This document shows, piece by piece, positions 5,782 to 59,675 of a DNA stretch of 64,000 nt (position 1 is its first letter; every line of letters begins with the position of its first letter). The notes under the pieces were generated by a model, which saw only the letters and a list, made by a program, of their open reading frames with translations, made no database searches and had not been told where the DNA came from. The position numbers and the translations under genes are program-made. This stretch comes from an uncultured bacterium (GTDB taxonomy: Bacteria; Patescibacteriota; Minisyncoccia; Phycocordibacterales; GWA1-40-21), in assembly GCA_963798465.1 (NCBI GenBank), contig CAWCTC010000001.1:132315-196314 (forward strand), given 5' to 3'.

Positions 5782-6864
5782 TTGGGTTTTATTTATATAA
5801 TCCCGTTTCTTGCAAATGCAAATATTGTGTCTGATATTTCAACTTTATTTTCAGGCAATTCCCAAGTCGTGGCTCCCGATGACAGTCAAACACCTGATGA
5901 CTCAAATTCTCAAAATGTGCCCCTGCTTGCAAGCAGCGTAAATTTGAATGCTAATGCTGCAGTCGGTGGAGGAAATATTACTGTTTCAGATGACGGCGAG
6001 GCATTGATGTCTGAAAGCGGTCCTTCTGGGACGATTGCGGATATCGGAGATACTGTTAACACAGGTCAGATTAGTAAATATACTGTGAGAGCCGGTGACA
6101 ATTTGTCATCTATCGCAAAAATGTATGGAGTTACAACAAATACAATTGTTTGGGCAAATAATCTTTCCAAAGCAACTATTCATACTGGCGAATCGCTTTT
6201 GATCTTACCTGTTTCTGGAACAATACATACTGTTGTAAAAGGAGATACATTAGCATCAATTGCAAAAAAATATAATGCTGATGTTGGAGACATCGCGGAG
6301 TTCAATGGTTTGGATTCCAAAGTGCCGCTTGTTGTTGGCAATACGTTGATTATTCCAAATGGAGAAGGTTCAGTTGAAATCAGCGGAAGTGTTACAACAA
6401 ATTCTTCAAATCCGTTTGCTGCCGGAGGGGCATATTACAATCCTTACAGAGGAGGAAGTGGTTCAAACGAAGACAGTTATTATGTCAGACCTCTTGCCGG
6501 GGGAATTATGACGCAAGGTTTGCATGGATATAACGCAGTCGATATAGGAACTCCTATCGGAACGCCGATATATGCTGCGGCAGCCGGACAAGTCATAGTT
6601 GCCAGATCTTCTGGATGGAATGGAGGTTACGGAAATTATATTGTTATTTCTCACGATAATGGAACGCAAACTCTTTATGCTCACTTGAGCCAAGTTCTTG
6701 TCAGCGAAGGAGAAAGTGTCGCACAAGGACAGACAATCGGTCTTTCAGGAAACACCGGAGATGTCTTCCCTGCACCGACAGCGGCTCATCCAAACTCTGG
6801 TGCGCATTTACACTTTGAAGTCAGAGGCGCGCATAACTTCATGCTGAATAAAAGTGAATATTAA
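5782..6864 (+). CDS. LysM-domain M23 family metallopeptidase
   Basis: Two LysM repeats (YTVRAGDNLSSIAKMYG and HTVVKGDTLASIAKKYN) and the M23 signature GNTG...HLHFEVR. Confidence 0.85.
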   Translation: MGFIYIIPFLANANIVSDISTLFSGNSQVVAPDDSQTPDDSNSQNVPLLASSVNLNANAAVGGGNITVSDDGEALMSESGPSGTIADIGDTVNTGQISKYTVRAGDNLSSIAKMYGVTTNTIVWANNLSKATIHTGESLLILPVSGTIHTVVKGDTLASIAKKYNADVGDIAEFNGLDSKVPLVVGNTLIIPNGEGSVEISGSVTTNSSNPFAAGGAYYNPYRGGSGSNEDSYYVRPLAGGIMTQGLHGYNAVDIGTPIGTPIYAAAAGQVIVARSSGWNGGYGNYIVISHDNGTQTLYAHLSQVLVSEGESVAQGQTIGLSGNTGDVFPAPTAAHPNSGAHLHFEVRGAHNFMLNKSEY

Positions 6865-6915
6865 ATAAAAATACAAAAGGGCGGCCGCTTCGCGGCCGCC
6901 CTTTTGTATTTTATT
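6864..6915. terminator. bidirectional GC-rich stem-loop terminator
   Basis: Core GGGCGGCCGC-TTCG-GCGGCCGCCC flanked by A/T runs, between convergent genes. Confidence 0.8.
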
Positions 6916-6924
6916 TTTTTTAAT

Positions 6925-12600: not shown

Positions 12601-12732
12601 TTTTTTAGATTTACCAACAAATTCCAGATTAGAAACAAATGTTCCAAGCTGTTTATTTGTTGGCAAAATAAATTAATAACTAATAATAAAAGAACAGTTT
12701 TATACTAGCATAAAAATTAATTTTTAAAAATA

Positions 12733-12775
12733 AAAAAACAAAGGGCGGCCGCTTCGCGGCCGCCCTTTGTTTTTT
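12733..12775. terminator. GC-rich stem-loop terminator
   Basis: Same 23-nt core GGGCGGCCGCTTCGCGGCCGCCC as at 6879 and 25677. Confidence 0.8.
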
Positions 12776-12782
12776 TATTTTC

Positions 12783-13842: not shown

Positions 13843-14796
13843 ATGAAACTTTCTGAACTTAAAAGACAATTTCTTGAATATACAGAAATAGAGCGCGGAC
13901 GTAGCATAAAAACCGTTGTTAATTACAATAGATATATTGATAAATTCATAGAATTTTCTGGAGATATAAGCCCCGAAAACATAAATGAAAATATGTTCCG
14001 TGAATACAGATTGTTTTTGAACAGACAGACGATAAAGCAAAACCGCGGGAAAAATTTATATCAAAGAGACGGACGTTCTGAAACTTTAAAAAAGAAAACC
14101 CAAAATTATTATCTTATCGCACTTCGTGCTTATCTGAAGTTTGCAAATAAAATCGGGATTAAAACGATATCGCCGGAAATAATAGAGCTTGCGAAAGTCG
14201 GTGAAAGATCTCTCGATCTTATTTCAAGAGATGATTTGGAAAAAATTATGAAAGGCCCGGATGTCGCGACTCTAAAAGGCTCGCGGGATAAGGCTATTTT
14301 TGAACTTTTGTTTTCAACCGGATTGCGTGTTTCCGAGCTGTGTTCTCTTCCTCGCGATATTGATTTGGACAGAGATGAATTTTCTGTTCGCGGAAAAGGA
14401 GAAAAAGTTCGTGTTGTTTTTCTTTCACAAGATGCGAAAGATGCTGTGAAAAAATATTTGGATAAAAGAGATGATATGTCCGATGCACTTTTTGTTCAGA
14501 TTGATTCACCGATAAAAAATTCTGAAAAAAAATCGAATGAAATTTCTGGAGCTCTTACTTCCCGATCCGTAGAAAGAATAATAAGATTTTATGCAATTAA
14601 AGCCGGCATTTCTAAGAAAGTTACACCGCATGTTTTAAGACATATTTTTGCCACAGATTTGCTCAGTAATGGTGCGGATTTGCGTTCTGTTCAGGCAATG
14701 CTTGGACATGCAAATATCGCCACGACTCAGATTTATACTCACATTACAGACAAACATCTCAGAGATATTCACAAAAATTTTCATGACAAAAAATAA
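13843..14796 (+). CDS. tyrosine recombinase, XerC/XerD-like
   Basis: SAM-like N-terminal domain. Catalytic residues in GLRVSEL, HVLRHIFAT and GHANIATTQIYTH. Start set at MKLSEL, 7 nt after TGGTAAAAT. Confidence 0.85.
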   Translation: MKLSELKRQFLEYTEIERGRSIKTVVNYNRYIDKFIEFSGDISPENINENMFREYRLFLNRQTIKQNRGKNLYQRDGRSETLKKKTQNYYLIALRAYLKFANKIGIKTISPEIIELAKVGERSLDLISRDDLEKIMKGPDVATLKGSRDKAIFELLFSTGLRVSELCSLPRDIDLDRDEFSVRGKGEKVRVVFLSQDAKDAVKKYLDKRDDMSDALFVQIDSPIKNSEKKSNEISGALTSRSVERIIRFYAIKAGISKKVTPHVLRHIFATDLLSNGADLRSVQAMLGHANIATTQIYTHITDKHLRDIHKNFHDKK

Positions 14797-14849
14797 AATG
14801 CATTAAAAAAGAGCGGCGCCTTTGGCGCCGCTCTTTTTTAATGCATTTT
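14795..14849. terminator. bidirectional GC-rich stem-loop terminator
   Basis: GAGCGGCGCC-TTTG-GCGCCGCTC core inside a longer A/T-rich palindrome. Confidence 0.8.
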
Positions 14850-15219
14850 ATTTATCCTCTTCTTTTTTATGTTCTGGATGTTGATGCATCTTTTTTTCTT
14901 TTTCTCTCGGTCTCTTTTCAACAAAATAATAAATCAGTGCACCGATAATCCAAGTAAAAATAATGACGATAACCCAGATTAATTTCATCTTTTCAGGAGA
15001 ATTTTTAATTGCATCAATAAGCATAACTAGCCAGAATACAAAGACAAATATGCAGAAACAAATCCAGATTAGAGGTATTAAAAGTAAGGGAAAAACAAGC
15101 CATGAAGTATTTGATTGAAATCCGTTATATCCTCCTCGGTAATAATTCATCATATATCCTTGAGCTGAAGCTAATACTGGTAATGCAAACAATGATAAAC
15201 TTGCTATAATTTTTTTCAT
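14848..15219 (-). CDS. small membrane protein with a PLD-nuclease N-terminal-like (PLDc_N) domain
   Basis: Signal-like N-terminus, TM helices, LIDAIKNS...IIGALIYYF motif, basic tail. Confidence 0.55.
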   Translation of the reverse strand: MKKIIASLSLFALPVLASAQGYMMNYYRGGYNGFQSNTSWLVFPLLLIPLIWICFCIFVFVFWLVMLIDAIKNSPEKMKLIWVIVIIFTWIIGALIYYFVEKRPREKEKKMHQHPEHKKEEDK

Positions 15220-16183: not shown

Positions 16184-16600
16184 GTTATGTCCTTTACATA
16201 ATTTCTATAGGACATATAATGATATCGGAAAATAGTTTTGATGATATAGACAAGGAATAGTATGCAACTGCTTTCCATGTCCTCCTTTTCATCATAACAA
16301 AAGTATGTTCTTTCAATGAAAGTCTAGCTAACTTTCGAAAAATCAAATAGAAATTGTTTGGTAAAAAGATTATATCTTTCCCATCCTTAAAAATTACATC
16401 ATTTATATATATTATAAAAAGTAATTAAAGGAGTATAAAATTTTTACGAGATATTATCTAATTTGTAGCCGCTCAAAAATATCGCTCAGGTATTTGGAGC
16501 GGTTTTTTATTGGAAAATAAAGAGCGAAGCGACTATATTTCCCTGTATCCTGTAAATACTCGCTGAATTTATGTATTTACAGGGTTATTTCCATACGATA

Positions 16601-17489: not shown

Positions 17490-17679
17490 TACGGAAAACG
17501 CGCCGAGATCGCTTCGCTTATCTTCCATTACATGGACGGTATACCTTTCGTATTTTTTTACATGAGTACATGTTAAAAAATATACTCAAGGTTTTTCGAT
17601 TCCCGGACGCAAGCAAAATTGTTTGCTTGCTCACTCGCACAAATGAAAAACACTCAGAATTCTGAGTGTTTTTCATTTG
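17490..17679 (-). other. tRNA-like trailer module behind tRNA-Gly(GCC)
   Basis: 56-nt perfect palindrome at 17632-17687 that includes the acceptor 3' strand. On the minus strand it is followed by TGCGAGTG, a 9-bp hairpin, CCGGGAATCGAA (complement of the T-arm 3' half), a long A/T hairpin, ATAC, and a TGTAA-loop hairpin. Confidence 0.45.
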
Positions 17680-17750
17680 TGCGAGTGCCGGGAATCGAAC
17701 CCGGGCCCAATCCTTGGCAAGGACTAGTTCTACCATTAAACCACACTCGC
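17680..17750 (-). tRNA. tRNA-Gly (anticodon GCC)
   Basis: Manual cloverleaf: acceptor GCGAGTG/CACTCGC, anticodon loop TTGCCAA, T-arm CCGGG-TTCGATT-CCCGG. No encoded CCA. Confidence 0.9.
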
Positions 17751-17898: not shown

Positions 17899-18342
17899 AT
17901 GAAAAAATGTTCAAAGTGTAAAAAAGAAAAATCAGATGATGAATTTAATTTTAAAAATAAAGGTTTAAAATTACGACAGTGTCAGTGTAAAGAATGTACT
18001 AGATTATTAATAAAAAATCATTATAATGAGAATAAACAGTATTATTTTAGTAAAGCTAAAAAAAGAAATTTAGAAATTAAAACAAACATTGTTAAATATT
18101 TACAAAATTACTTATCAAATAAGTCATGTATTGATTGTGGAGAGTCAGATATTGCAGTTCTTGAATTTGATCACACAAATCGATCAAAAAAATTTAAAGC
18201 TGTTTCAACTCTCATAAGATGTGGTTACCCAATGGAGGTAATACTGGAGGAAATAAGTAAATGTGATATTAGATGTGCGAACTGTCATAGGAGAAAGACG
18301 TCAAAAGATTTTAAATGGCTTAAAACAATAATGCCCCTGTAG
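17899..18342 (+). CDS. HNH (His-Me finger) endonuclease
   Basis: CxxC pairs, LEFDH, and CANCHRRKT motif. The last 10 nt overlap the 5' end of tRNA-Arg. Confidence 0.7.
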   Translation: MKKCSKCKKEKSDDEFNFKNKGLKLRQCQCKECTRLLIKNHYNENKQYYFSKAKKRNLEIKTNIVKYLQNYLSNKSCIDCGESDIAVLEFDHTNRSKKFKAVSTLIRCGYPMEVILEEISKCDIRCANCHRRKTSKDFKWLKTIMPL

Positions 18343-18404
18343 CTCAACGGATAGAGTACTGGTCTTCGAAACCAGTGGTGAAGGTTCAATTCCTTCCAGG
18401 GGTA
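18333..18404 (+). tRNA. tRNA-Arg (anticodon TCG)
   Basis: Acceptor GCCCCTG/CAGGGGT, anticodon stem CTGGT/ACCAG with loop CTTCGAA, T-arm GAAGG-TTCAATT-CCTTC. Confidence 0.9.
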
Positions 18405-18447
18405 CAAAAAGTTTATTATATTTAGTTATTTTGATATAATTCAAACA

Positions 18448-19953
18448 ATGAAAAAAACTATCCTAGAATATGGTCCAATTCCAAAAGAAGTTTTAGAAGT
18501 TTCAGAAACACTTAAAAAATCTGGTTATGAAGCTTACTTGGTAGGTGGTTGTGTTCGTGATATTTTGGTCGGTTTAAAACCAAAAGATTGGGATATTACG
18601 ACAAACGCCAAACCTGAAGATATAATAAGGATATTTCCGGATACTTTCTATGAAAATGTTTACGGAACGGTTGGTGTAGTGAATGAAACGGTTTCTGATG
18701 AAACGCTCAAGGTAATTGAAATAACGCCATATAGGCTTGAATCCGAATATTCTGACAATAGAAGGCCTGACAAGGTGACTTTCAGTGATAAGCTCGAAGA
18801 TGATTTGAAAAGAAGAGATTTTACAATAAATGCTATTGCTTTGGATATTGAAAATGAGGGAAGCAAGGAAGATTTTTATAAAGGACATATTGTCGATCTA
18901 TTTCACGGACAGGAAGATTTAAAAAATAAAATTTTGCGAACTGTCGGAGACGCGCATGAAAGATTTCAAGAAGATGGTCTTAGAATATTGCGCGCTGTGA
19001 GAATAGGGAACTATGTCGGATTTGAAATTGACAGTAAAACGGAAAAAGCATTAGCAGAAGAGTCTCACTTGCTTTCAAATATAGCAAAAGAAAGAATTCG
19101 CGATGAATTTGCAAAAATAATTATGTCGAAAGATCCAGAACAAGGATTAAAATCTTGTCAGAAATTTGGATTGTTAAAATTTATTATTCCAGAATTAGAA
19201 AAAACAATTAATGTTGAACAAGGCGGAGCGCACATTTACGATGTTTGGAATCATTCGCTCAAAGCATTACAATTTGCCGCCGACAAAAATTTTTCTTTGG
19301 AGCTTCGTCTTTCTGCACTTTTGCATGACATAGGAAAACCGAAATCAAAAAGGGAAGGAGAAAAAAAACCGACATTTTACGGCCATGAAGTTGTCAGTGC
19401 AAGAATGACGGAAAAAATTTTGCTGGATCTGAAATTTCCGACAAAAATAATTGAAAAAGTCACAAAACTCGTTAGAAATCATATGTTTTTTGCCGACACG
19501 GAACTTATTAGTTTGTCAGCTGTTCGAAGAATTGTTGCAAGAGTTGGGAAAGATAATGTTTGGGATCTTATGGATTTACGCGCTTGTGACAGAATAGGAA
19601 TGGGCAGACCAAAAGAAGATCCATATCGTTTGAGAAAATATCACGCGATGATTGACGAAGCGACGAGAGATCCGATTTCTGTAGGAATGCTTAATATTGA
19701 TGGAAAGAAAATTATGGAAGTTACGGGCGAAATTCCTGGACCAAAAATCGGTTTTGTTTTACATGCACTTCTTGAAGAGGTTTTAGATAATCCAAAATTA
19801 AATACTGAAGAATATTTAAATAAAAAAGCAATTGAACTTATTAAGCTCCCGGAAAAAAAGTTGCGAGAAATGGGTGAGGAAGGAAAAGAAAGAAAAGAAG
19901 AAAAAAATGAAGAAGAATTGAAAGAGATTAGAAAGAGTCATAAGGTCAGATAA
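18448..19953 (+). CDS. cca: CCA-adding tRNA nucleotidyltransferase with an HD domain
   Basis: GGCVRD nucleotidyltransferase head and LLHDIGKP HD motif. TGATATAAT sits 7 nt upstream of the ATG. Confidence 0.85.
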   Translation: MKKTILEYGPIPKEVLEVSETLKKSGYEAYLVGGCVRDILVGLKPKDWDITTNAKPEDIIRIFPDTFYENVYGTVGVVNETVSDETLKVIEITPYRLESEYSDNRRPDKVTFSDKLEDDLKRRDFTINAIALDIENEGSKEDFYKGHIVDLFHGQEDLKNKILRTVGDAHERFQEDGLRILRAVRIGNYVGFEIDSKTEKALAEESHLLSNIAKERIRDEFAKIIMSKDPEQGLKSCQKFGLLKFIIPELEKTINVEQGGAHIYDVWNHSLKALQFAADKNFSLELRLSALLHDIGKPKSKREGEKKPTFYGHEVVSARMTEKILLDLKFPTKIIEKVTKLVRNHMFFADTELISLSAVRRIVARVGKDNVWDLMDLRACDRIGMGRPKEDPYRLRKYHAMIDEATRDPISVGMLNIDGKKIMEVTGEIPGPKIGFVLHALLEEVLDNPKLNTEEYLNKKAIELIKLPEKKLREMGEEGKERKEEKNEEELKEIRKSHKVR

Positions 19954-19969
19954 AATTTGTTTTTATTTC

Positions 19970-21505
19970 ATGAACAAAGAACTTGTAACATATATTATTG
20001 CAAAGCTAAAGCAAGGAAATACTTTTGAATCGATAAAAGATGAGCTTATTAAATATGGCTGGTCTATCGATGATATAAATGCGGCTTACAAAAGTTGTAT
20101 TTCATCAAAAAAAACCGACGCTTTTTCTTTTTCAAAAATTTTTCATTCAAAAATTCCGAGAGTTATGAATATTTTTTTAATTTTTGTTTTTCTGGGATTA
20201 TTTGCCTGTTTTTTCTTATATTTTAAAAATCCGGTTTATAGCTATACGATAAATTTAGCCTCAGTAATTCCTGGCACAAAAACAGAAACTTTGAATTATG
20301 GGGAACAGCCAGCGTTATCAAATCCAGTTTTTTTTGATCAAGTAAAAAATCAATTTATTAGCGACAAAGTAAATTTTATTGAAGTTAATCTTTCTGACAT
20401 GTATGTAAAGGTCTACAAAAATGGCGACGATGTTTTGGATCTACCGGTAAAAACAATTGGCAGGGAAGGCTCGTGGTGGGAAACGCCTGCCGGACTTTAT
20501 AAAATAGAAACAAAAGAACCGACTCATTTTTCTTCTATGGGAAATGTTTATATGCCGTGGAGCATGGAATTTCAGGGAAATTTTTACATTCATGGTATTC
20601 CTTATTTTTCCGATGGAACGCCGGTCGCTACTTCATATTCCGGAGGATGTATCAGACTCGAAACTGATGATGCAAAAAAACTTTATGATGCGGTAGATAT
20701 TGGATACCCGATTCTTGTTTATAAAAATAGTTTTGAGCCCGATGATTTTCAATACACGGAAGCGGTTCCGACTTTGTCTGGGGCTTCTTCAATCGCAGTA
20801 GATATTGGAAATAATTATGTCTTTTCAGAAAATAATCCCGATGAAGTTTTGCCGATTGCCTCAATTACAAAATTGATGACTGCGCTCGTTACGACTGAAT
20901 ATATAAATCTTGATGATATTGCGACTGTTCCGCAGGAAGCTATAGTTTATACTTCCACTCCGCGTTTGAAAGTCGGAGAAAAAATAAGCGTCTATCAGCT
21001 TCTTTATCCTCTTCTTATGGAATCTTCAAATGAAGCAGCTGAAACTATCGCTAGATATTTTGGTCGCGATGATTTTATTGCTGACATGAATGCGAAAGCT
21101 GCTTCTCTTGGAATGACTCATACGCATTTTGCGGATCCGTCTGGAGCTTCTGCGGACAATGTTTCCACGGCTGAAGATTTGGTAACTTTGGCAAAATATA
21201 TTTATTACAATAGGCAATTTATATTGAATATCACATCCGGAAAAATAAATAATTCCGCCTATGAGCCGAATATGTTTACCGGTATGTCAGATTTCAATGA
21301 TTTTACAGATAATCCAAATTTTGTCGGAGGAAAAGTCGGAGAAACTACGGCAGCAAAAGAAACTGAACTTTCAATATTTGATTTGCCCATAGCAAACAGC
21401 ACCAGCACTCGGCCGATAGTCATAATTACTTTGGGCTCGGATAATAGAAAAAGTGATATACAATCCATGCTTGATTATATTTCAAACAATTTTTTTAAAA
21501 AATAA
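19970..21505 (+). CDS. fusion of an L,D-transpeptidase (YkuD) and a D-alanyl-D-alanine carboxypeptidase (peptidase S11)
   Basis: YkuD motifs IHG...SGGCIRL. S11 motifs SITK and SSN. N-terminal soluble domain followed by a TM segment. Confidence 0.8.
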   Translation: MNKELVTYIIAKLKQGNTFESIKDELIKYGWSIDDINAAYKSCISSKKTDAFSFSKIFHSKIPRVMNIFLIFVFLGLFACFFLYFKNPVYSYTINLASVIPGTKTETLNYGEQPALSNPVFFDQVKNQFISDKVNFIEVNLSDMYVKVYKNGDDVLDLPVKTIGREGSWWETPAGLYKIETKEPTHFSSMGNVYMPWSMEFQGNFYIHGIPYFSDGTPVATSYSGGCIRLETDDAKKLYDAVDIGYPILVYKNSFEPDDFQYTEAVPTLSGASSIAVDIGNNYVFSENNPDEVLPIASITKLMTALVTTEYINLDDIATVPQEAIVYTSTPRLKVGEKISVYQLLYPLLMESSNEAAETIARYFGRDDFIADMNAKAASLGMTHTHFADPSGASADNVSTAEDLVTLAKYIYYNRQFILNITSGKINNSAYEPNMFTGMSDFNDFTDNPNFVGGKVGETTAAKETELSIFDLPIANSTSTRPIVIITLGSDNRKSDIQSMLDYISNNFFKK

Positions 21506-21557: not shown

Positions 21558-21628
21558 CGGAGTGTAGTGTAACGGTAGCATTCGTGCTTTGGGAGCATGC
21601 GATCCGGGTTCGAATCCCGGCACTCCGA
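21558..21628 (+). tRNA. tRNA-Pro (anticodon TGG)
   Basis: Acceptor CGGAGTG/CACTCCG, anticodon loop TTTGGGA, T-arm CCGGG-TTCGAAT-CCCGG. Confidence 0.9.
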
Positions 21629-21836
21629 CAAAAACTAAAATAACCTTCAATTGAAGGTTATTTTAGTTTTTGTCGGAGTGTTCAAAGTGCTGGGAGCACT
21701 TTGAAAGGGATTCGAAGCCCGATTGTGTATTTTTTACAAGTTTAATAACGAAGTAAAAAATCCAATCGGGATACTGGTCGTGTAACGACCGAAATTCCCG
21801 GCAAATCTGGATTGGAAGTTTCGAAACTCCCGGCGA
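21629..21836 (+). other. tRNA-like trailer module behind tRNA-Pro
   Basis: 60-nt perfect palindrome at 21621-21680 that incorporates the acceptor strand. It is followed by CGGAGTG, a hairpin with loop TGGGA, GGGATTCGAA, a long hairpin CCCGATTG...CAATCGGG, ATAC, the hairpin GGTCG-TGTAA-CGACC, and GAAATTCCCGGCA. Confidence 0.45.
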
Positions 21837-21855
21837 TTATGTTATTATATAAATT

Positions 21856-22533
21856 ATGAAACTCCTTCTTTACGGACATAATACAGATGAAATAAAACAC
21901 TTGGCCGAGAAAGCTGGTTTTGAAATTGTAAATGAAAATCCAGATGTCGTAGCAAGTTATGGTGGTGATGGAACTTTTATGCAAGCTGAGAGCAAATTTC
22001 CAGGGATTCCAAAATTTGCATTAAAAAAAAGTAAAATTTGCAAAAAGTGTCACGACCTTCCTATTGAAGAAATGTTTAGAAAAGTTTTTTCAGGAGAATA
22101 TAGGATTGAAGAGGACATAAAAATAGAGTCTGTGTGCAAAGGCAAAAAAATAGTGGGTCTCAACGAAATAATCATCCACAATTCTGATCCGAGAAGGGCA
22201 ATACGCTACGAAGTTTTTGTAAATGATAAGAAAATTGACAGCGAGATAATAGGGGATGGAGTAATCATTTCTACACCTTATGGCTCAACTGGATATTACA
22301 GGTCAATTACAGATGGTATATTTGAAGTTGGAATAGGTTTAGCTTTTAATAATAGTACTGAGCAGTCCGATCATATGGTTTTAAAAGAGGATTCAGAGAT
22401 TAAAATAAAGATAGTGCGCGGACCTGCGGTAGCTTATGCTGATAATGATGAAGTAGAGATACCTTTGAATGATGGAGATGAAATTGAAATTAAAAAATCG
22501 AAAGAAATTGCAAAAATAATCAGATTATTATAA
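21856..22533 (+). CDS. nadK: NAD kinase
   Basis: GGDGT motif and NAD kinase C-terminal beta-sandwich pattern. TGTTATTAT lies 7 nt upstream of the ATG. Confidence 0.85.
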   Translation: MKLLLYGHNTDEIKHLAEKAGFEIVNENPDVVASYGGDGTFMQAESKFPGIPKFALKKSKICKKCHDLPIEEMFRKVFSGEYRIEEDIKIESVCKGKKIVGLNEIIIHNSDPRRAIRYEVFVNDKKIDSEIIGDGVIISTPYGSTGYYRSITDGIFEVGIGLAFNNSTEQSDHMVLKEDSEIKIKIVRGPAVAYADNDEVEIPLNDGDEIEIKKSKEIAKIIRLL

Positions 22534-23035: not shown

Positions 23036-23106
23036 GCGGGCATAGTTTAGTGGTAAAACAACAGTTTTCCAAACTGTGGTTGGGTGTTCGATTCACCCTG
23101 CCCGCA
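23036..23106 (+). tRNA. tRNA-Gly (anticodon TCC)
   Basis: Acceptor GCGGGCA/TGCCCGC, anticodon stem ACAGT/ACTGT with loop TTTCCAA, T-arm GGGTG-TTCGATT-CACCC. Confidence 0.9.
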
Positions 23107-23308
23107 CAAATGAAATAACCAACTTTTTTAAGTTGGTTATTTCATTTGTCGAGGCAAGCGAACAAACTGCTTTGTTCGTGTGGGTGAATCGAAAGACTTT
23201 TCCATATGAGCGAAGCGAAGCAGAAAAGTACCTGGCTACGTCGTAGCAGATTCACCCTGCCCGCACAAATGAAAAATCACTCAGTTTTCTGAGTGATTTT
23301 TCATTTTG
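23107..23308 (+). other. tRNA-like trailer module behind tRNA-Gly(TCC)
   Basis: Hairpin at 23107-23148. GGGTGAATC (23182-23190) pairs with GATTCACCC (23249-23257), enclosing GAAAGAC and two hairpins. The module ends with a direct repeat of the tRNA 3' end (23249-23265) followed by a second hairpin (23266-23308). Confidence 0.5.
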
Positions 23309-25253: not shown

Positions 25254-25667
25254 ATGAAAAAAATGGTACAAAAAGCCGGAGCAATTGTTTTAAGCGCTAA
25301 AAATAAAGGTAATATTGTCCTAATCTATAGAATCAGTTTGAATGACTGGTCCTTTCCCAAAGGCCATGTTGAAAAAGGTGAAACTTATGAGCAGACAATG
25401 ATCAGAGAGATTAAAGAAGAAACTGGATTGGATGTAAAAATAATTAAAAAATTGCCTGATAATTTATATTCAAATGAAGATGAAGGGAAAATTTCTACAA
25501 AGATGTTCCTTGTCGCATCGGAAGATGATTCAAAAATCAAACCGGAGCTTCCCGGCGATAGAACGGAATGGATTCCGTATGATGAAGTCGTGGAAAAGCT
25601 CAGCTATGATAATTTGAAAGATTATTTTAAAAAGGTTTTGCCGGAAATAAAAAAAGCAATTGCGTAA
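25254..25667 (+). CDS. NUDIX hydrolase
   Basis: Nudix box GHVEKGETYEQTMIREIKEETG. Confidence 0.85.
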   Translation: MKKMVQKAGAIVLSAKNKGNIVLIYRISLNDWSFPKGHVEKGETYEQTMIREIKEETGLDVKIIKKLPDNLYSNEDEGKISTKMFLVASEDDSKIKPELPGDRTEWIPYDEVVEKLSYDNLKDYFKKVLPEIKKAIA

Positions 25668-25670
25668 AAT

Positions 25671-25706
25671 TTTAAAAGGGCGGCCGCTTCGCGGCCGCCC
25701 TTTTAA
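25671..25706. terminator. bidirectional GC-rich stem-loop terminator
   Basis: Third copy of the core GGGCGGCCGCTTCGCGGCCGCCC, between convergent genes. Confidence 0.8.
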
Positions 25707-25715
25707 AATTTTTTC

Positions 25716-31928: not shown

Positions 31929-32001
31929 GCGCTTATAGCTCAGTCGGTAGAGCAGCTCCCTTTTAAGGAGACGGTCGTTGGTTCGATTCCAACTAAGCGC
32001 A
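31929..32001 (+). tRNA. tRNA-Lys (anticodon TTT)
   Basis: Acceptor GCGCTTA/TAAGCGC, anticodon loop CTTTTAA, T-arm GTTGG-TTCGATT-CCAAC. Confidence 0.9.
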
Positions 32002-32205
32002 CAAATTTTTTATAAAAATTTGGGCAGCTTAAGGAAGCACCTGCGTGCTTTCGTGTTGGAATCGAAAGACTTTTCCTTATCGAATGAGCAAAGCGAAATG
32101 AGATGGAAAAGTACCTGGCTATGTAGTAGCCGATTCCAACTCAAGCGCACAACGCAAGCAATTAAAAATCGCCGGTTATCTATAAGGCGATTTTTTCTTG
32201 CGTTG
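32002..32205 (+). other. tRNA-like trailer module behind tRNA-Lys
   Basis: Hairpin at 32002-32022. GCAGCTTAAG resembles the acceptor 5' strand. GTTGGAATC (32055-32063) pairs with GATTCCAAC (32132-32140), enclosing GAAAGAC, the ACTTTTCC/GGAAAAGT hairpin and the GGCTA-TGTAG-TAGCC hairpin. The module ends TCAAGCGCA (32141-32149) and is followed by a hairpin at 32150-32205. Confidence 0.5.
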
Positions 32206-32350
32206 TGCGGACCGGACGAACGGAGTGAGGAGGTCGGGCTGTAACTTTGCTTTGAGTTCACGAAAAGCAAAAGTTATAGCCACAGTGAAATCAAAGTTTC
32301 AAATGAAGATAGTTTAAGAAGACTCTGATTGGAATGAACCAGTTTTTAGA

Positions 32351-37667: not shown

Positions 37668-38935
37668 ATGCAAAAAATAATTTCAAAAATTAAAAAATTA
37701 ATGCCGAAAAAACTGTGGCAAAAGCTTCAGCCGATTTATCATTACAAGCTTGCAGTTCTCGGCGCGATTATTTACAGATTTCCATCAAAAGAAATAAAAG
37801 TTGTCGGCGTGACTGGAACGAAAGGAAAAACTTCATCAGTGGAGTTCGTGAATGCGATTTTGGAAGAAGCTGGCAAAAAAACAGCTGTCGCCGGAACTTT
37901 GAGATTTAAAATTGGAAATGAATCGAAACCGAATTTATACAAGATGACGATGCCGGGAAGAATTTTCATACAAAAATTTTTACGAAAAGCAGTTCTCGCC
38001 GGATGCGAATATGCAATAATTGAAATTTCTTCCGAAGCTGCGAAACAATACAGAAATAAATTTATCGATCTTGATGCTCTGATTTTTACAAATCTTGCGC
38101 CTGAACATATTGAGTCGCACGGAAGTTATGAAAAATATGTCGAGGCAAAACTTGCGATTGCAAAAGAATTGGAAAAATCTTCAAAAGAAAACAAAGCGAT
38201 GATCGTGAATGCCGACGACAAAGAAGGAGAAAAATTTTTGAAAATAAATGTTGGAAAATAAAATTACTTATTCTTTGGCCGAAGCAAAAGATATTTCTGC
38301 GTCGGAAGATTTCACAAAATTTACTTACAAAGGAGTAAAGATGGAAACAACACTTCCGGGAAAATTTAATATTTATAATATGCTCGGCGCGATAAAATAT
38401 GCCGAACATGAAAAAATAGATTTGGAAATTGTAAAAAAAGCATTTTTAAAATTGAAAGAAATAAAAGGGCGAGCGCAAAGAATTGAAGAAGGGCAGGATT
38501 TCAAAGTTGTCGTTGATTATGCTCACACGCCGGATTCTTTGAAAGCGATTTATGAAACATATCTTGGAAGTAAAAAAATCGTGGTGCTTGGAAATTGCGG
38601 TGGTGGCCGTGACAAATGGAAAAGAAAAGAAATGGCAGAAATTGCAGACAATTATTGCGAAGCGGTGATTCTCACAGATGAAGATCCATACGATGACGAT
38701 CCGCGAGAAATTGTGGAAGACATGGCGAAATATTTTAAAAATAAAAAACCGGAAATAATAATGGACAGGAGAGAAGCGATTGCGAAAGCATTTCAAAAAT
38801 CAAAAAGTGGAGACGTTGTGATAATCACAGGAAAGGGAACGGATCCGTACATCATGAGAAAAAATGGTGAGAAAGAAAAATGGAGCGATGCGGAAGTGGC
38901 GAGAGGAAGAATTGAAAAAATTGTTGAAAAAGTAA
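37668..38935 (+). pseudogene. murE: Mur ligase (MurE-like UDP-MurNAc-tripeptide synthetase) with 2 frameshifts
   Basis: GVTGTKGKTS P-loop in ORF 37599-38261 and DYAHTPDSL in ORF 38248-39048. The join ...FLKINV|ENKITYSL needs a 1-nt shift near 38245-38255. The annotated C-terminus reads through the terminator, whereas a shifted frame ends EELKKLLKK-TAA at 38933-38935. Confidence 0.75.
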
Positions 38936-38990
38936 AATACAAAAAGGGCGGCCCGCTAAGCGGGCCGCCCTTTTTGTATTTTACTTTTTT
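38927..38990. terminator. long GC-rich stem-loop terminator
   Basis: GTAAAATACAAAAAGGGCGGCCCGC-TAA-GCGGGCCGCCCTTTTTGTATTTTAC. Confidence 0.8.
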
Positions 38991-39957: not shown

Positions 39958-40010
39958 ATTTTTCATTTTCCTAACCCTAAAGGATAAGGAAAATATATTC
40001 GCTTCGCTCA

Positions 40011-40580
40011 TTATTTTCCTAAAATTTTCAGTGCCGCCTTTATTCTGTCTCCAGTTTTTGTAATTGTTTTTTCTACATCGCGAAGTGCATCACGTGCATC
40101 TTTCGGATTGTAGCCGAGAGCTTTCAAAGCTTCGATTGCGTCTATTTCATCGCGAAGTGAAATATCATTTTCATCACCTGATATGCCGACCTTATCTTTT
40201 AGCTCGAGCACCATTTTGTCTGCAATCTTTTTTCCAATTCCTGAAACTTTTGTAAGATGGGAAGTGTCGCCGGTTGAAATTGCTCGCTTGAGTGCTGGAA
40301 CAGAACTGATGTTCAAAACATTTACGGCAGTTTTCGGACCGATTCCAGAAATAGAAATTATCATTTCAAAAAATTGCAATTCTTCTTCTGAAAGAAATCC
40401 ATAAAGATCGAGTGCGTCTTCTCTGACGACTAAATGAGTGAACAAGGAAATCTTTTCTCCTTTTTGCGCGACTTCTTTTGTTTCTGCTGTCGTGTAAATT
40501 TTAAAACCGATTCCGCCGACTCCGACAGTTAGAAATTTAACATTTGTGTCCCAAACTATACCTTCTATTTTTGATATCAT
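40011..40580 (-). CDS. ruvA: Holliday junction DNA helicase subunit RuvA
   Basis: MISKIEGIV..., two HhH motifs (ISGIGPKTA and VSGIGKKIA), and C-terminal domain III. Confidence 0.9.
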   Translation of the reverse strand: MISKIEGIVWDTNVKFLTVGVGGIGFKIYTTAETKEVAQKGEKISLFTHLVVREDALDLYGFLSEEELQFFEMIISISGIGPKTAVNVLNISSVPALKRAISTGDTSHLTKVSGIGKKIADKMVLELKDKVGISGDENDISLRDEIDAIEALKALGYNPKDARDALRDVEKTITKTGDRIKAALKILGK

Positions 40581-41511: not shown

Positions 41512-41761
41512 TTCTGCACCTCCAATTTTTTGTAAAACATCATTCTTACCTATTATAGCATTAATTACGTTAATGTCAAGAGTAGTAAAAATAACACATA
41601 TTCAAGGGTGTTTTTAATTGTACTGTGGTCAGGAATAATTTTCTCGTCGTCACTCGAAAATTTTCACTACCCTGACTCGTTTGTTTTGCTTGCTAGCAAA
41701 ACATAACTCCGTCTCGCACATGTATCAAAAAACACGAAGCAGTTCGTGTTTTTCTATCATG

Positions 41762-43924: not shown

Positions 43925-43966
43925 GAATAGTATTTTAATATATTTTAATTGAAAAGACTATTTTTT

Positions 43967-44032
43967 GTCATTCCCGCGCAGGCGGGAATCCAGAATTAGT
44001 TCAACTTAGATTCCCGCCTGCGCGGGAATGAC
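43967..44032. repeat. nested double-hairpin palindromic element
   Basis: GTCATTCCCGCGCAGGCGGGAATC (43967-43990) and its exact reverse complement (44009-44032). Each arm is itself a hairpin (ATTCCCGC/GCGGGAAT). Confidence 0.7.
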
Positions 44033-44056
44033 ACAGTATCATGTTATAATCATATT

Positions 44057-45958: not shown

Positions 45959-46135
45959 CAACGACAAATAAAAACAGCCTGGGAAGGCTGTTTTTATTTT
46001 GGCGTCATGGATGAAAGGTGAGATTCGAAAGACGGAGCCGACACGAACGATAGTGAATGAATCGGCGAGTCGGGGTCGCAAGTTCTTATGAGCGAAGCGA
46101 ATTAGAAACTTGGACCGAATCTCACCTCTTCCGCA
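45959..46135 (+). other. tRNA-like trailer module behind tRNA-Ser
   Basis: Hairpin AAATAAAAACAGCC...GGCTGTTTTTATTT. GGTGAGATTC (46017-46026) pairs with GAATCTCACC (46117-46126), enclosing GAAAGAC and hairpins that include a GAGCGAAGCGAA cap. A perfect 19-nt direct repeat of the tRNA 3' end lies at 46117-46135. Confidence 0.5.
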
Positions 46136-46161
46136 AAATAATTTTATGGTAAAATAAAAAG

Positions 46162-58810: not shown

Positions 58811-59512
58811 ATGCAAAAAAGTATTATCATTTTCAGCGATGGTTCATCGAGAGGAAATCCAGGTCCGGGAGGCTGGGGCGCAATTATCGCAGATGAAAAA
58901 AAAGCTTTGGAGATTGGCGGAAGAGAAAATCACACGACGAATAATCGCATGGAACTTTTAGGCGCCATAAATGCGCTTGCATCAATTAAACAATCAAAGG
59001 AAGAAATAATTTTAAATACGGATTCATCATACGTGATAAATGGAATTACAAAATGGGTTTATGGCTGGCAGAAAAATGGCTGGATAAATTCTACAAAAGA
59101 TGAAGTTTCAAATCGCGATTTATGGGAAGAGTTGATAAAAGTTTCTGATAGTAAAAAAATAAAATGGAATTATGTCGGCGGTCATATTGGAGTTCCAGGA
59201 AATGAAAGATGTGATGAGATAGCGACTTCATTTGCAGATAATGAAAAAATAAAACTTTTCAAAGGTAAGATTTCTGATTATGAATTTAATTTGTCTGACA
59301 CGAAAGGAAATGGAATAAAAATTTCAAAAAAATCCAAAAATAAAAGTCCGGCATATTCTTATCTGAGCCTGGTTCACGGAGTTTTACATATTGATAAGAC
59401 TTGGCTGGAGTGCGAAAAAAGAGTGAAAGGCGTAAAAGGAAATGTTAAATTCAAAAAATCGGCGAGCCTGGAAAATGAAAAAGAAATTTTGAAAGAGTGG
59501 GGAATACGATAA
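58811..59512 (+). CDS. rnhA: ribonuclease HI with a C-terminal extension
   Basis: SDGSSRGNPGPGGWG, NNRMEL and TDSSYV RNase H motifs. The extra 80-aa tail resembles an RNase H1 hybrid-binding-type domain (W.ECEKRVKG). Confidence 0.85.
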   Translation: MQKSIIIFSDGSSRGNPGPGGWGAIIADEKKALEIGGRENHTTNNRMELLGAINALASIKQSKEEIILNTDSSYVINGITKWVYGWQKNGWINSTKDEVSNRDLWEELIKVSDSKKIKWNYVGGHIGVPGNERCDEIATSFADNEKIKLFKGKISDYEFNLSDTKGNGIKISKKSKNKSPAYSYLSLVHGVLHIDKTWLECEKRVKGVKGNVKFKKSASLENEKEILKEWGIR

Positions 59513-59517
59513 TAATA

Positions 59518-59549
59518 AATGGGCGGCCAGCGAAGCTGGCCGCCCATTT
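59518..59549. terminator. GC-rich stem-loop terminator
   Basis: AAATGGGCGGCCAGC-GAA-GCTGGCCGCCCATTT. Confidence 0.8.
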
Positions 59550-59675
59550 GTGTTTAATATTAAAATTGACAATAATCCTTTCAATTGCTTTAATTGAGTG
59601 AACAGAGTTCTTTGCAAAAATAAAAAGAACTAATTCTATTTTTAAAATTTGGCTTTGGCCAAAAAAGGAGGATTT

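Follow-up and report, generated by a model that had tools for sequence, protein, structure and literature searches.

Islands integrated at tRNA genes classically leave a direct repeat of the tRNA 3' end as their footprint, and the phage attachment site (attP) of integrative mobile elements exploiting Xer (IMEX) of the CTX-phage type is a folded single-stranded DNA hairpin that mimics dif. Together with the attC sites of integron cassettes, these are the described systems closest to the element reported here, which lies in a 64-kb stretch (the window) of contig CAWCTC010000001.1 from an uncultured member of the Patescibacteria. In this window, the 3' end of a tRNA-Pro gene is embedded in a perfect palindrome that is followed by a structured module, and related modules follow most of the other tRNA genes. 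The modules belong to a family of small structured cassettes that is widespread in Patescibacteria (CPR bacteria) and has apparently gone undescribed. Because they form discrete units, occur in tandem and flank, as identical copies, 1 to 4.4 kb of accessory genes, they behave like cassette boundaries, and on balance we read them as the repeated boundary, attachment (att)- or attC-like, of a tRNA-anchored insertion cassette, of which the palindrome would be the left junction.

The tRNA-Pro palindrome and the module behind it

The tRNA-Pro(tgg) gene (21558 to 21629, plus strand) was found by ARAGORN and by the Rfam model RF00005 at 61.8 bits, its 3' end being placed at 21629 or 21628 depending on the tool; it does not encode CCA and has the T loop TTCGAAT. 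A first-pass annotation, made from the DNA letters alone, had described a perfect inverted repeat at 21621 to 21680 with the acceptor 3' strand of this tRNA as its left arm, and the inverted-repeat scan, ARAGORN and Rfam confirmed this: the arms (21621 to 21650 and 21651 to 21680) are 30 nucleotides (nt) each, 100% complementary and separated by a spacer of 0 nt. The left arm opens with the acceptor 3' strand CACTCCG (21621 to 21627) and the discriminator A (21628), and the right arm ends in TCGGAGTG. Between these lies T1 (21629 to 21672, plus strand), an A/U-flanked, terminator-like hairpin directly 3' of the tRNA, the interior of which varies among relatives and is still palindromic. The terminal TCGGAGTG (21673 to 21680, plus strand), termed P1-5', is an antisense arm that matches the reverse complement of the acceptor 3' strand and discriminator exactly, and is conserved in the related loci L072 and L074. 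The 30+30 palindrome on the plus strand is thus made of the acceptor 3' strand with its discriminator, T1 and P1-5', and it reads as one long palindrome because P1-5' abuts T1.

Neither the length nor the perfection of the palindrome is special in itself, since the window-wide inverted-repeat scan found long perfect A/U-flanked palindromes to be the usual terminator style of this genome. Its extension into the tRNA is not due to chance: an 8-nt perfect extension has p ~1.5e-5 per site by arithmetic estimate, and the design recurs at other tRNAs of the window, as a perfect 28+28 palindrome at tRNA-Gly(gcc) (17632 to 17687) and in weaker form at tRNA-Gly(tcc), tRNA-Lys and tRNA-Arg(gcg). As a candidate intrinsic terminator, T1 is an AT-rich hairpin with a U-rich run inside the stem, and a simple consensus scan made no call. 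Elsewhere in the window, the ends of many genes carry long perfect palindromes, A/U-flanked and with an GGGCGGCCGC-type core; several are of 22 to 31 bp, and they have the look of bidirectional terminators (6863 to 6917, 12727 to 12781, 14791 to 14853, 25666 to 25712, 38927 to 38989 and 59510 to 59556).

All of the hairpins and the T-arm- and D-arm-like pieces that the first-pass annotation had placed behind the palindrome are present where it placed them. The module, which begins 44 nt past the discriminator and on the same strand as tRNA-Pro, continues after P1-5' with the hairpin hpA (21681 to 21705, plus strand), which is inserted between two antisense segments at the tRNA 65/66 junction and has 11-bp arms around a central GGG, equal to the 10-bp stem with loop TGGGA noted earlier. 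Homologous hairpins occur in Gly, Lys and Glu modules, and hpA of L072 differs by a compensatory U-A to C-G change. The TGGGA loop had been remarked upon for containing the anticodon TGG; the loop is there, but the match is a coincidence, and anticodon mimicry was rejected, because the homologous hpA loops of other modules (CTGC, CAAT and AGTA) never hold their own anticodon. R follows (GGGATTCGAA, 21707 to 21716, plus strand), a reverse complement of the T loop and T-stem 3' strand that agrees with CCGGGATTCGAA at 10/12 positions, and then P3 (21718 to 21770, plus strand), a long AT-rich scaffold hairpin recovered by the repeat scan, by folding and by covariance model (CM) alignment. J3/4 (AUAC) and the hairpin P4, GGTCG-TGTAA-CGACC, together span 21771 to 21791 on the plus strand (P4 proper, 21776 to 21790) and resemble a segment, UAC-CUGGCUA...UAGCAG, that is present in the modules of Gly(tcc) and Lys.

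The module closes with an echo of the tRNA, F2 (CGAAATTCCCGGCA, 21790 to 21803, plus strand), a degenerate direct copy of tRNA positions 56 to 69 in which the T part is kept with one extra base and the acceptor part is lost; in L072 the acceptor part is half-kept (...GGCACT). A second, older echo identified by the repeat scan (CGAAACTCCCGGCG, 21822 to 21835) lies within a T-arm-like hairpin at 21814 to 21848 (plus strand), and this region overlaps a promoter-like site, TCGAAA-16-TATTAT, ahead of the NAD kinase gene (21856 to 22533, plus strand; PF20143), which flanks the cassette on the outside. Upstream of tRNA-Pro, the ORF at 19970 to 21505 encodes a fusion of an L,D-transpeptidase (YkuD) and a D-Ala-D-Ala carboxypeptidase (S11); this 511-amino-acid product had been considered as a second CCA-adding enzyme, which was rejected on these Pfam assignments to L,D-transpeptidase and S11 peptidase.

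Reading the DNA after each tRNA of the window revealed a common unit 3' of six of the seven. Its order is tRNA 3' end, T1, P1-5', an optional hpA, R, AGAC, P3, P4 and the echo F2, often with a second terminator. Throughout, P1-5' repeats the acceptor 3' strand and discriminator in antisense, R is an antisense copy of the T-stem 3' strand and T loop that ends in ...TCGAA, and F2 a direct copy of the tRNA from C56/G57 of the T loop through the discriminator, often into the trailer; the scaffold consists of P3 and P4 after AGAC and includes a GGA/GA internal loop as well as a G.U (or G.T) pair that is conserved. Modules are ~130 to 180 nt long (units of 130 to 230 bp) and lie immediately 3' of the tRNA gene.

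Two CMs were used to score the copies. Model R1 was seeded with ten TTTTCC-type modules, with Pro and Gly(gcc) excluded, and model R2, made from loop-trimmed cores, was a poor search model, as real loops cost it too many bits. After tRNA-Gly(gcc) (tRNA at 17679 to 17750, minus strand), the module at 17499 to 17687 (minus strand; R1, 37.2 bits, E 4.6e-07 at 17514 to 17630) has the 28+28 palindrome, then TGCGAGTG, hpA, R (CCGGGAATCGAA), the scaffold and a degenerate echo. The intact module after tRNA-Gly(tcc) (23108 to 23306, plus strand; R1, 102.5 bits, as a seed of the model) comprises T1, TCGAGGCA, hpA, R (GGGTGAATCGAA), the scaffold, the exact echo GATTCACCCTGCCCGCA (23249 to 23265), CAAATGAAA and a second terminator, T2; here the echo GATTCACCCTGCCCGCACAAATGAAA equals the tRNA sequence over 26 nt. 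The tRNA-Lys module lies at 31995 to 32149 (plus strand; echo at 32132 to 32149; R1, 94.8 bits), and palindromes enter the tRNA 3' ends at Gly(tcc) (23099 to 23156) and Lys (31994 to 32031) as at Gly(gcc). A GACGGAG-type module with the exact echo CGAATCTCACCTCTTCCGC follows tRNA-Ser(tga) (45960 to 46136, plus strand; R2, 33.7 bits, as a seed of that model). After tRNA-Arg(gcg), a truncated variant with weak CM matches (41656 to 41760, minus strand) retains a hairpin, TGCG and an AGAC-GGAG...CGAGTC-AG-P4 scaffold, without R and without an echo. The Pro copy is a divergent, partly decayed member of this family. R1 matched its module (21684 to 21799) over the full length, ranking it fourth in the window with 19.3 bits (E 0.011); the decay is visible in the two mismatched positions of R, in the echo without its acceptor part and in the second, older echo 20 nt further on.

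The sole tRNA of the window without a module, tRNA-Arg(tcg) (18333 to 18405), is followed directly by the gene of the CCA-adding enzyme (18448 to 19953; PolyA_pol and HD domains), and the cca gene adjoins module-bearing tRNAs at six other loci. None of the seven window tRNAs encodes CCA, and six of their trailers start with CA (five CAAA, one CATG), that of tRNA-Ser being the exception.

When each core was folded alone, the same three-way junction resulted, and the Pro copy gave the same fold. Covariation was assessed in 79 cores, with the variable loops swapped for GAAA. Under the named structure, 86.9% of cells were paired versus 70.7% in shuffles, the covariation score was 0.427 versus 0.150 (0/500 shuffles reached it, and slid partners gave ≤0.10), and both-side changes amounted to 337 cells versus 124 in shuffles. 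Clean covariation was seen in the P3 inner stem and the P4 stem, both of which are independent of the tRNA: pair 2 of the P3 inner stem was CG in 33 cores, GC in 29, AU in 6, UA in 6, GU in 3, UG in 2 and unpaired in 0, and pair 5 of P4 was G.U in 49/79. The tRNA-sense strand folded better than the antisense strand in 88/92 cores (-47.3 versus -39.4 kcal/mol). G.T pairs and such strand asymmetry are also expected from a folded single DNA strand. The scaffold contains no remnants of a D arm or anticodon arm, and RF00005 and ARAGORN gave no tRNA match on 21673 to 21836 at E up to 10.

Stretches of 6 to 8 nt in the P4 loops of two modules, Pro and Gly(gcc), also occur in the D loop of the respective tRNA (GTGTAACG and TAATGG; 21777 to 21787 versus 21564 to 21574, and 17540 to 17525 versus the tRNA-Gly(gcc) D loop); with two cases only, this could be fortuitous or a vestige of an origin of the scaffold from tRNA. 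A hammerhead ribozyme was considered and rejected: GAAA is present, the CUGAUGA strand is absent (0 nt between P4 and the closing stem) and a G follows GUC. Other small ribozymes were dismissed as well, with no model match. GCGAAGC is an exceptionally stable DNA mini-hairpin, and the hairpin tips of modules are frequently GCGAAGC. The GAGCGAAGCGA loop that caps P3 and P4 in many modules also occurs in hairpins (e.g., GGAAAATAATGAGCGAAGCGAATATATTTTCC) at gene ends away from tRNAs, with 12 matches versus 1.8 expected (16510 to 16545, plus strand; 39990 to 40025, minus strand; also 13369, 27038 and 42094).

Gain, loss, cargo and spread of the modules

Orthologous tRNA-Pro loci were located through their NAD-kinase homologues, and a module follows tRNA-Pro in 3/7 of them. 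At L072/L073 (NAD kinase 87% identical in amino acids), tRNA and module are nearly the same as in the window; the interior of T1 has been replaced yet is palindromic through CACTCCGA/TCGGAGTG, and one hpA pair is compensatory. L074/L075 (69%) have a 30+30 perfect palindrome of other sequence that also keeps CACTCCGA...TCGGAGTG, with hpA present and the scaffold and echo decayed. Among the loci without a module, L196 (76%) has a remnant only, a hairpin plus TCGGA after tRNA-Pro, nothing follows tRNA-Pro in L197 (70%) and L199 (65%), and L198 (66%) carries a plain 29-nt copy of T arm and acceptor with no scaffold. Conservation of the palindrome at orthologous tRNA-Pro loci therefore holds among near relatives (3/7) but not in the four that lack the module, and since the module is found at 3/7 of these loci only, maturation of tRNA-Pro does not depend on it.

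In L198 (2340 to 2500), tRNA-Pro encodes CCA and the 29-nt copy stands 57 nt later, joined to the usual CAAATG trailer; it has the appearance of a distinct and simpler event that duplicated the 3' half of the tRNA. In L072 (~1016 to 1438), the Pro module and the NAD kinase gene are separated by an ACT-domain gene, which is absent from the window, where the corresponding place (21804 to 21855) holds the second echo and the promoter-like site.

At tRNA-Lys, L072 is without exactly 148 nt (~31995 to 32142) that the window and L032 carry. The flanks are nearly identical, and the indel is bounded by the 20-nt direct repeat GATTCCAACTAAGCGCACAA. Orthologues of tRNA-Gly(tcc) have a TTTTCC-type module in the window and L072, a GGAG-type variant in L197 and none in four others; in the L197 variant, R (GGGTGAATCGGA) complements an unusual T loop, TCCGATT. 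Many tRNAs of the same genomes have no module. The module is thus a discrete unit, bounded by a direct repeat and present or absent between close relatives. Past the terminator of tRNA-Lys, an older truncated module (32150 to 32290; TGCG-GACC-GGA...GA-GGTC-GG-hairpin) is kept in the window, L032 and L072, and in L072 (10840 to 11110) it retains the degenerate echo GGTCCAACTAAGT, which suggests successive insertions at one tRNA.

Modules of the same sequence stand in tandem in L104 and L178. Across 152 scaffold matches, 50 had no tRNA within 200 nt upstream, and in four such cases that were followed up the cognate tRNA lay kilobases upstream, with accessory genes between. L088 has tRNA-Ala, 4.4 kb of cargo (a DNA methylase, Z1/ResIII and one unknown gene), and then hairpin, antisense arm, scaffold and echo. 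In L178, tRNA-His and two modules are followed by 3.5 kb (DUF305, MauE-like, LigT-like, pyrophosphatases) and an identical second module copy, and in L127, tRNA-Ala and its module by 3.7 kb (a TrmB-type regulator and others) and an identical T1 plus module. L062 consists of tRNA-Ser, a module, one nucleotidyltransferase gene and a module. Cargo between flanking copies ranges from 1 to 4.4 kb, and most module copies are free of it. Orphan modules with no adjoining tRNA were seen in L030 (minus strand, ~4060) and L104 (6368 to 6608); the second module of L030 bears the exact 3' end of a tRNA-Ser that is 2.7 kb away, and the L104 tandem consists of two identical 182-nt units.

In a pattern scan of genomes, one for each species, true modules were confined almost entirely to metagenome-assembled genomes (MAGs) of Patescibacteria, among them Saccharibacteria, Paceibacterota/Minisyncoccia, Yonath-, Taylor-, Zambryski-, Vogel- and Spechtbacteria, and a metagenome scan gave at least 120 further loci among the matches listed. 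Many genome-scan matches were set aside as unrelated GTCATTCTGAGCGAAGCGAAGAATC repeats of other phyla, which resemble repetitive extragenic palindromic (REP) elements. The window has a perfect 25-nt inverted repeat at 43966 to 44033 (TGTCATTCCCGCGCAGGCGGGAATC/GATTCCCGCCTGCGCGGGAATGACA) that resembles the GTCATTC...GAATC REP-like repeats behind false matches from Acidobacteriota and Bradyrhizobium. One module outside the Patescibacteria, L057 (JANOEV010000422.1, a 'Burkholderiales' MAG), sits after a CCA-encoding tRNA-Leu on a contig of 57% G+C and has the same AAATGAAAA...TTTTCATTT hairpin flanks as the window; it represents either cross-phylum spread or a mis-binned contig.

In all, 110 tRNA-module pairs were collected, 72 of high confidence and representing 17 isotypes. 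The design is therefore not specific to tRNA-Pro; the same cassette family follows tRNAs of 17 or more isotypes. For R, reverse complementarity to the T loop and T-stem 3' strand is exact in 48/110 pairs and within one mismatch in 72/110. R tracks variant T loops (TTCAAAT, with ATTTGAA, at L074/L075; TCCGATT, with AATCGGA, at L197), and where the tRNA T stem has a G.U pair, R complements the 3' strand by Watson-Crick pairing in 14 cases and copies the 5' strand in one. The echo is exact in its T part in 59/102 pairs and in its acceptor part in 54/102, the latter being degenerate in about one-third, and a full-length acceptor complement occurs in only ~28/102 modules. The left edge of the echo is fixed between T-loop positions 55 and 56, with TT before CGA in 0/72 echoes versus 72/72 tRNA T loops starting with TT, and its right edge falls 0 to 15 nt beyond the discriminator in the 72 high-confidence pairs.

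Three module types were searched against Rfam at the gathering thresholds and at E up to 10, and no family matched. Models of transfer-messenger RNA (tmRNA), T-box, Y RNA-like RNAs, group I introns, self-cleaving ribozymes and IS605/IscB RNAs gave only noise (miRNA-type hairpins); one permuted-tmRNA match of 18.5 bits in Rfam E-value mode falls on the palindrome. Blastn of modules against annotated plasmid and phage collections yielded no match. Literature searches found the module family in no paper of the library searched. Together, these negatives do not prove it undescribed; the nearest paper found, on group I introns in tRNA anticodon loops of Patescibacteria (PMC13011429), is unrelated to the modules. 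Among ORFs within 3 kb of 102 modules, there was no recurrent protein family beyond the syntenic CCA-adding enzyme and LAGLIDADG-like helix-turn-helix (HTH) ORFs. The latter, of ~220 amino acids with an HTH and a LAGLIDADG-like motif (LGLGVYIGEG), stand beside or inside tRNA genes in L063 (4169 to 4871), L081 (2742 to 3405) and five other loci and are probably homing endonucleases of the Patescibacteria group I tRNA introns (PMC13011429).

Cassette boundary, RNA switch or scar

If the modules are cassette boundaries, insertion at the conserved T loop would leave the tRNA intact, and the echo would be the duplicated or restored target. The antisense arm would pair with the echo and close a branched hairpin, a stem with a variable branched tip, that would resemble a folded integron attC or the attP hairpin of CTX phages; alternatively, the arm may pair with the 3' half of the tRNA itself. 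A recombinase or other enzyme encoded elsewhere might act on this folded site, the active fold being either single-stranded DNA or read-through RNA, and an effect on tRNA-Pro maturation, if any, would be a side-effect. More tentatively, we suggest a novel integron-like or guide-bearing cassette system of Patescibacteria, possible though a good deal less assured than the boundary itself, with the modules as its recognition and integration sites and the universally conserved T loop as a safe harbour. The branched fold, as single-stranded DNA or RNA, would present the antisense arm as a 'guide' to the 3' segment of the tRNA, and a trans-encoded enzyme would insert or excise cassettes, whether or not they carry defence and accessory genes, and regenerate the tRNA.

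Several observations weigh against the reading as a cassette boundary. No recombinase, transposase or reverse transcriptase was found beside the modules or in the cargo examined, nor any recurrent recombinase within 3 kb of 102 modules, and neither circular nor excised forms turned up. The change between empty and filled sites could be either insertion or deletion, slippage between the 20-nt repeats at tRNA-Lys could alone account for the empty ones, and how R and echo come to be matched to each new tRNA is unexplained by this reading. The closing stem, R with echo, covaries only since both copy the tRNA; because each matches the tRNA and the two do not compensate where they differ, this stem lacks independent covariation support. 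The motifs TCGAAAGACGGA, GAGTC and GGG were fixed by the search pattern, so that conservation is partly ascertainment. The Pro copy has a weak CM score, and its two strands fold equally well (z -5.7 and -5.9). Finally, the fixed orientation, the following terminator, the GNRA-like loops and the conserved G.U fit RNA function equally well. A preference of R for pairing with the tRNA rather than the echo (31 versus 5) was discarded as a sign of function, as R and echo diverge alike (107 versus 88 mismatches).

The first-pass annotation had proposed that the acceptor strand could pair either within the cloverleaf or in the long hairpin and that this choice could couple tRNA maturation to termination. 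The region downstream is indeed assembled from pieces derived from the tRNA. The alternative pairing exists, is not chance and is favoured in a modelled read-through transcript, in which the extended fold beats the cloverleaf (-61.3 versus -53.3 kcal/mol to 21680, and -120.4 versus -100.7 kcal/mol through the whole module), as expected by that proposal; a dedicated coupler is unlikely given the patchy, mobile-like distribution. A cis-regulatory switch for termination or quality control, with the echo as a decoy for the antisense arm, would nonetheless account for this predicted 8 to 20 kcal/mol advantage over the cloverleaf-containing fold, for complementarity to the own tRNA 3' half that is kept at many loci and follows T-loop variants, for a hairpin kept at three orthologous Pro loci with compensatory replacement of its interior, and for the better folding of the sense strand. 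It is hard to square with absence of the module at 4/7 orthologous tRNA-Pro loci and at many tRNAs of the same genomes, with gain and loss as a unit, with copies that adjoin no tRNA or flank cargo, and with a full-length acceptor complement in just ~28/102 modules. Moreover, the antisense arm cannot act on termination at T1 because it is transcribed after the U-rich tail of T1. We regard such a switch as unlikely. We give slightly less credence to a host noncoding RNA that mimics the tRNA top half, is cotranscribed, is trimmed by RNase P and RNase Z, receives CCA and acts in trans as a tRNA-specific decoy or adaptor for a protein reading the acceptor and T stem. A tRNA-like end (discriminator, same trailer, own terminator), scaffold covariation with the conserved G.U pair, strand-asymmetric folding and wide conservation in Patescibacteria speak for such an RNA; yet the T-stem G.U pairs of the tRNA go uncopied (14 versus 1), the L007 module has A-U in place of G3.U70 of tRNA-Ala, about one-third of copies have a degenerate acceptor part in their echo, the discriminator is paired inside the module, and the distribution is patchy even among close relatives. 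An aminoacylatable tRNA mimic or tmRNA-like RNA was rejected on the uncopied G.U, the loss of G3.U70 in the Ala module, the paired discriminator and the lack of an Rfam match.

The modules might also be scars in the DNA, att duplications left by deleted integrase-borne islands or decayed tandem tRNA copies, whose hairpins would be functionless. Direct repeats of tRNA 3' ends are typical of tRNA-integrated islands, L198 offers a scaffold-free copy of T arm and acceptor 57 nt after tRNA-Pro, and many copies are decayed, but a simple att duplication would never be expected to include an antisense copy, the scaffold holds no D-arm or anticodon-arm remnants and matches no tRNA model, and it is kept with compensatory changes at 17 isotypes from Saccharibacteria to Paceibacterota, so we consider this explanation improbable. 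Chance or an artefact was also weighed. Zero-spacer perfect palindromes can come from amplification or assembly, as in a chimeric inverted join; here the inversion is only 30 nt long and leads on into a conserved module, another tRNA of the window has a perfect palindrome of its own, and the same architecture with other hairpin sequences recurs in independent JGI, ENA and NCBI assemblies, which effectively refute this explanation and leave it a negligible probability. Two further identities were rejected. The antisense arm complements the genomic trailer and not CCA and is hence not aimed at mature tRNA, as a retroelement primer-binding site would be; and an element derived from a miniature inverted-repeat transposable element or insertion sequence does not fit a repeat that is 18 to 35 nt long and copied from the tRNA, rather than a 2- to 10-bp duplication, nor inverted segments that derive from the target and are not termini.

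Patescibacteria genomes are tiny and have little non-coding DNA; the window nonetheless devotes ~1 kb to modules after tRNAs. If the modules are the att-like ends of cassettes, they would explain the traffic of accessory and defence genes in reduced genomes and would constitute a structured site of a new kind, for recombination or for guiding, that brings its own 'repair copy' of the target gene; the match of antisense arm and echo to the neighbouring tRNA would offer a programmable targeting logic. As RNAs instead, they would make up an extensive class of structured, tRNA-coupled RNAs that has escaped recognition. In both cases they matter to annotation, as they create tRNA-fragment repeats, long palindromes and spurious ORFs beside tRNA genes in thousands of MAGs.

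Comparison with known systems

Several RNA elements are similar in part. Post-tRNA terminators and 3' external transcribed spacers likewise place an A/U-flanked hairpin right after the discriminator and could give a read-through RNA attached to the tRNA; in the modules, the stem enters the tRNA and is followed by a conserved module with a copy of the tRNA 3' end. The tRNA-like domain of tmRNA, bacterial YrlA/Y RNA and plant mitochondrial t-elements are comparable in that the 5' and 3' segments of the module can form an acceptor/T-like stack that ends at the discriminator base. In contrast to these, the module has no T loop or elbow, its discriminator is paired, the G.U of the tRNA is uncopied, its sequence is specific to the neighbouring tRNA, and Rfam gave no match to those families.

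Like integron attC sites, the modules are imperfect palindromes conserved in structure, not in sequence, and the inverse core, variable branched tip and core of attC are comparable to R, P3-P4 and the echo. Strand-specific folding, arrays anchored at one fixed site and a cargo of a single gene or none are further properties held in common with integron cassettes. The anchor, however, is the T loop and 3' end of a tRNA rather than attI, the core, taken from the host tRNA, is different at each tRNA, and the scaffold sequence is strongly conserved. The G|TTRRRY core was not found, the T loop GTTCGAA not fitting GTTRRRY, and an IntI-type integrase was not seen near modules in the survey of recurrent families, which could miss one and included no dedicated intI search.

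With tRNA-integrated islands and tycheposon-like elements, whose tyrosine-recombinase att sites include a T-loop sublocation, the modules share insertion at the tRNA 3' part, restoration of the tRNA 3' end that is left as a direct repeat (20 nt at tRNA-Lys; echoes exact in more than half), tandem accretion and accessory or defence cargo. They are distinct from islands in that most are gene-free and 130 to 230 bp long, with no integrase in or beside them, and in that they also contain the att core in antisense, together with a structured scaffold that is conserved. As in the attP of CTX phages, two inverted copies of the target lie ~90 nt apart and can fold to mimic a double-stranded target, although this target is a tRNA gene and not dif, and no phage genome is involved. 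The modules stand apart from attC, CTX-type attP and tRNA islands as small, mostly gene-free units, with no integrase nearby, that carry a core copied from the neighbouring tRNA in both orientations and a conserved scaffold.

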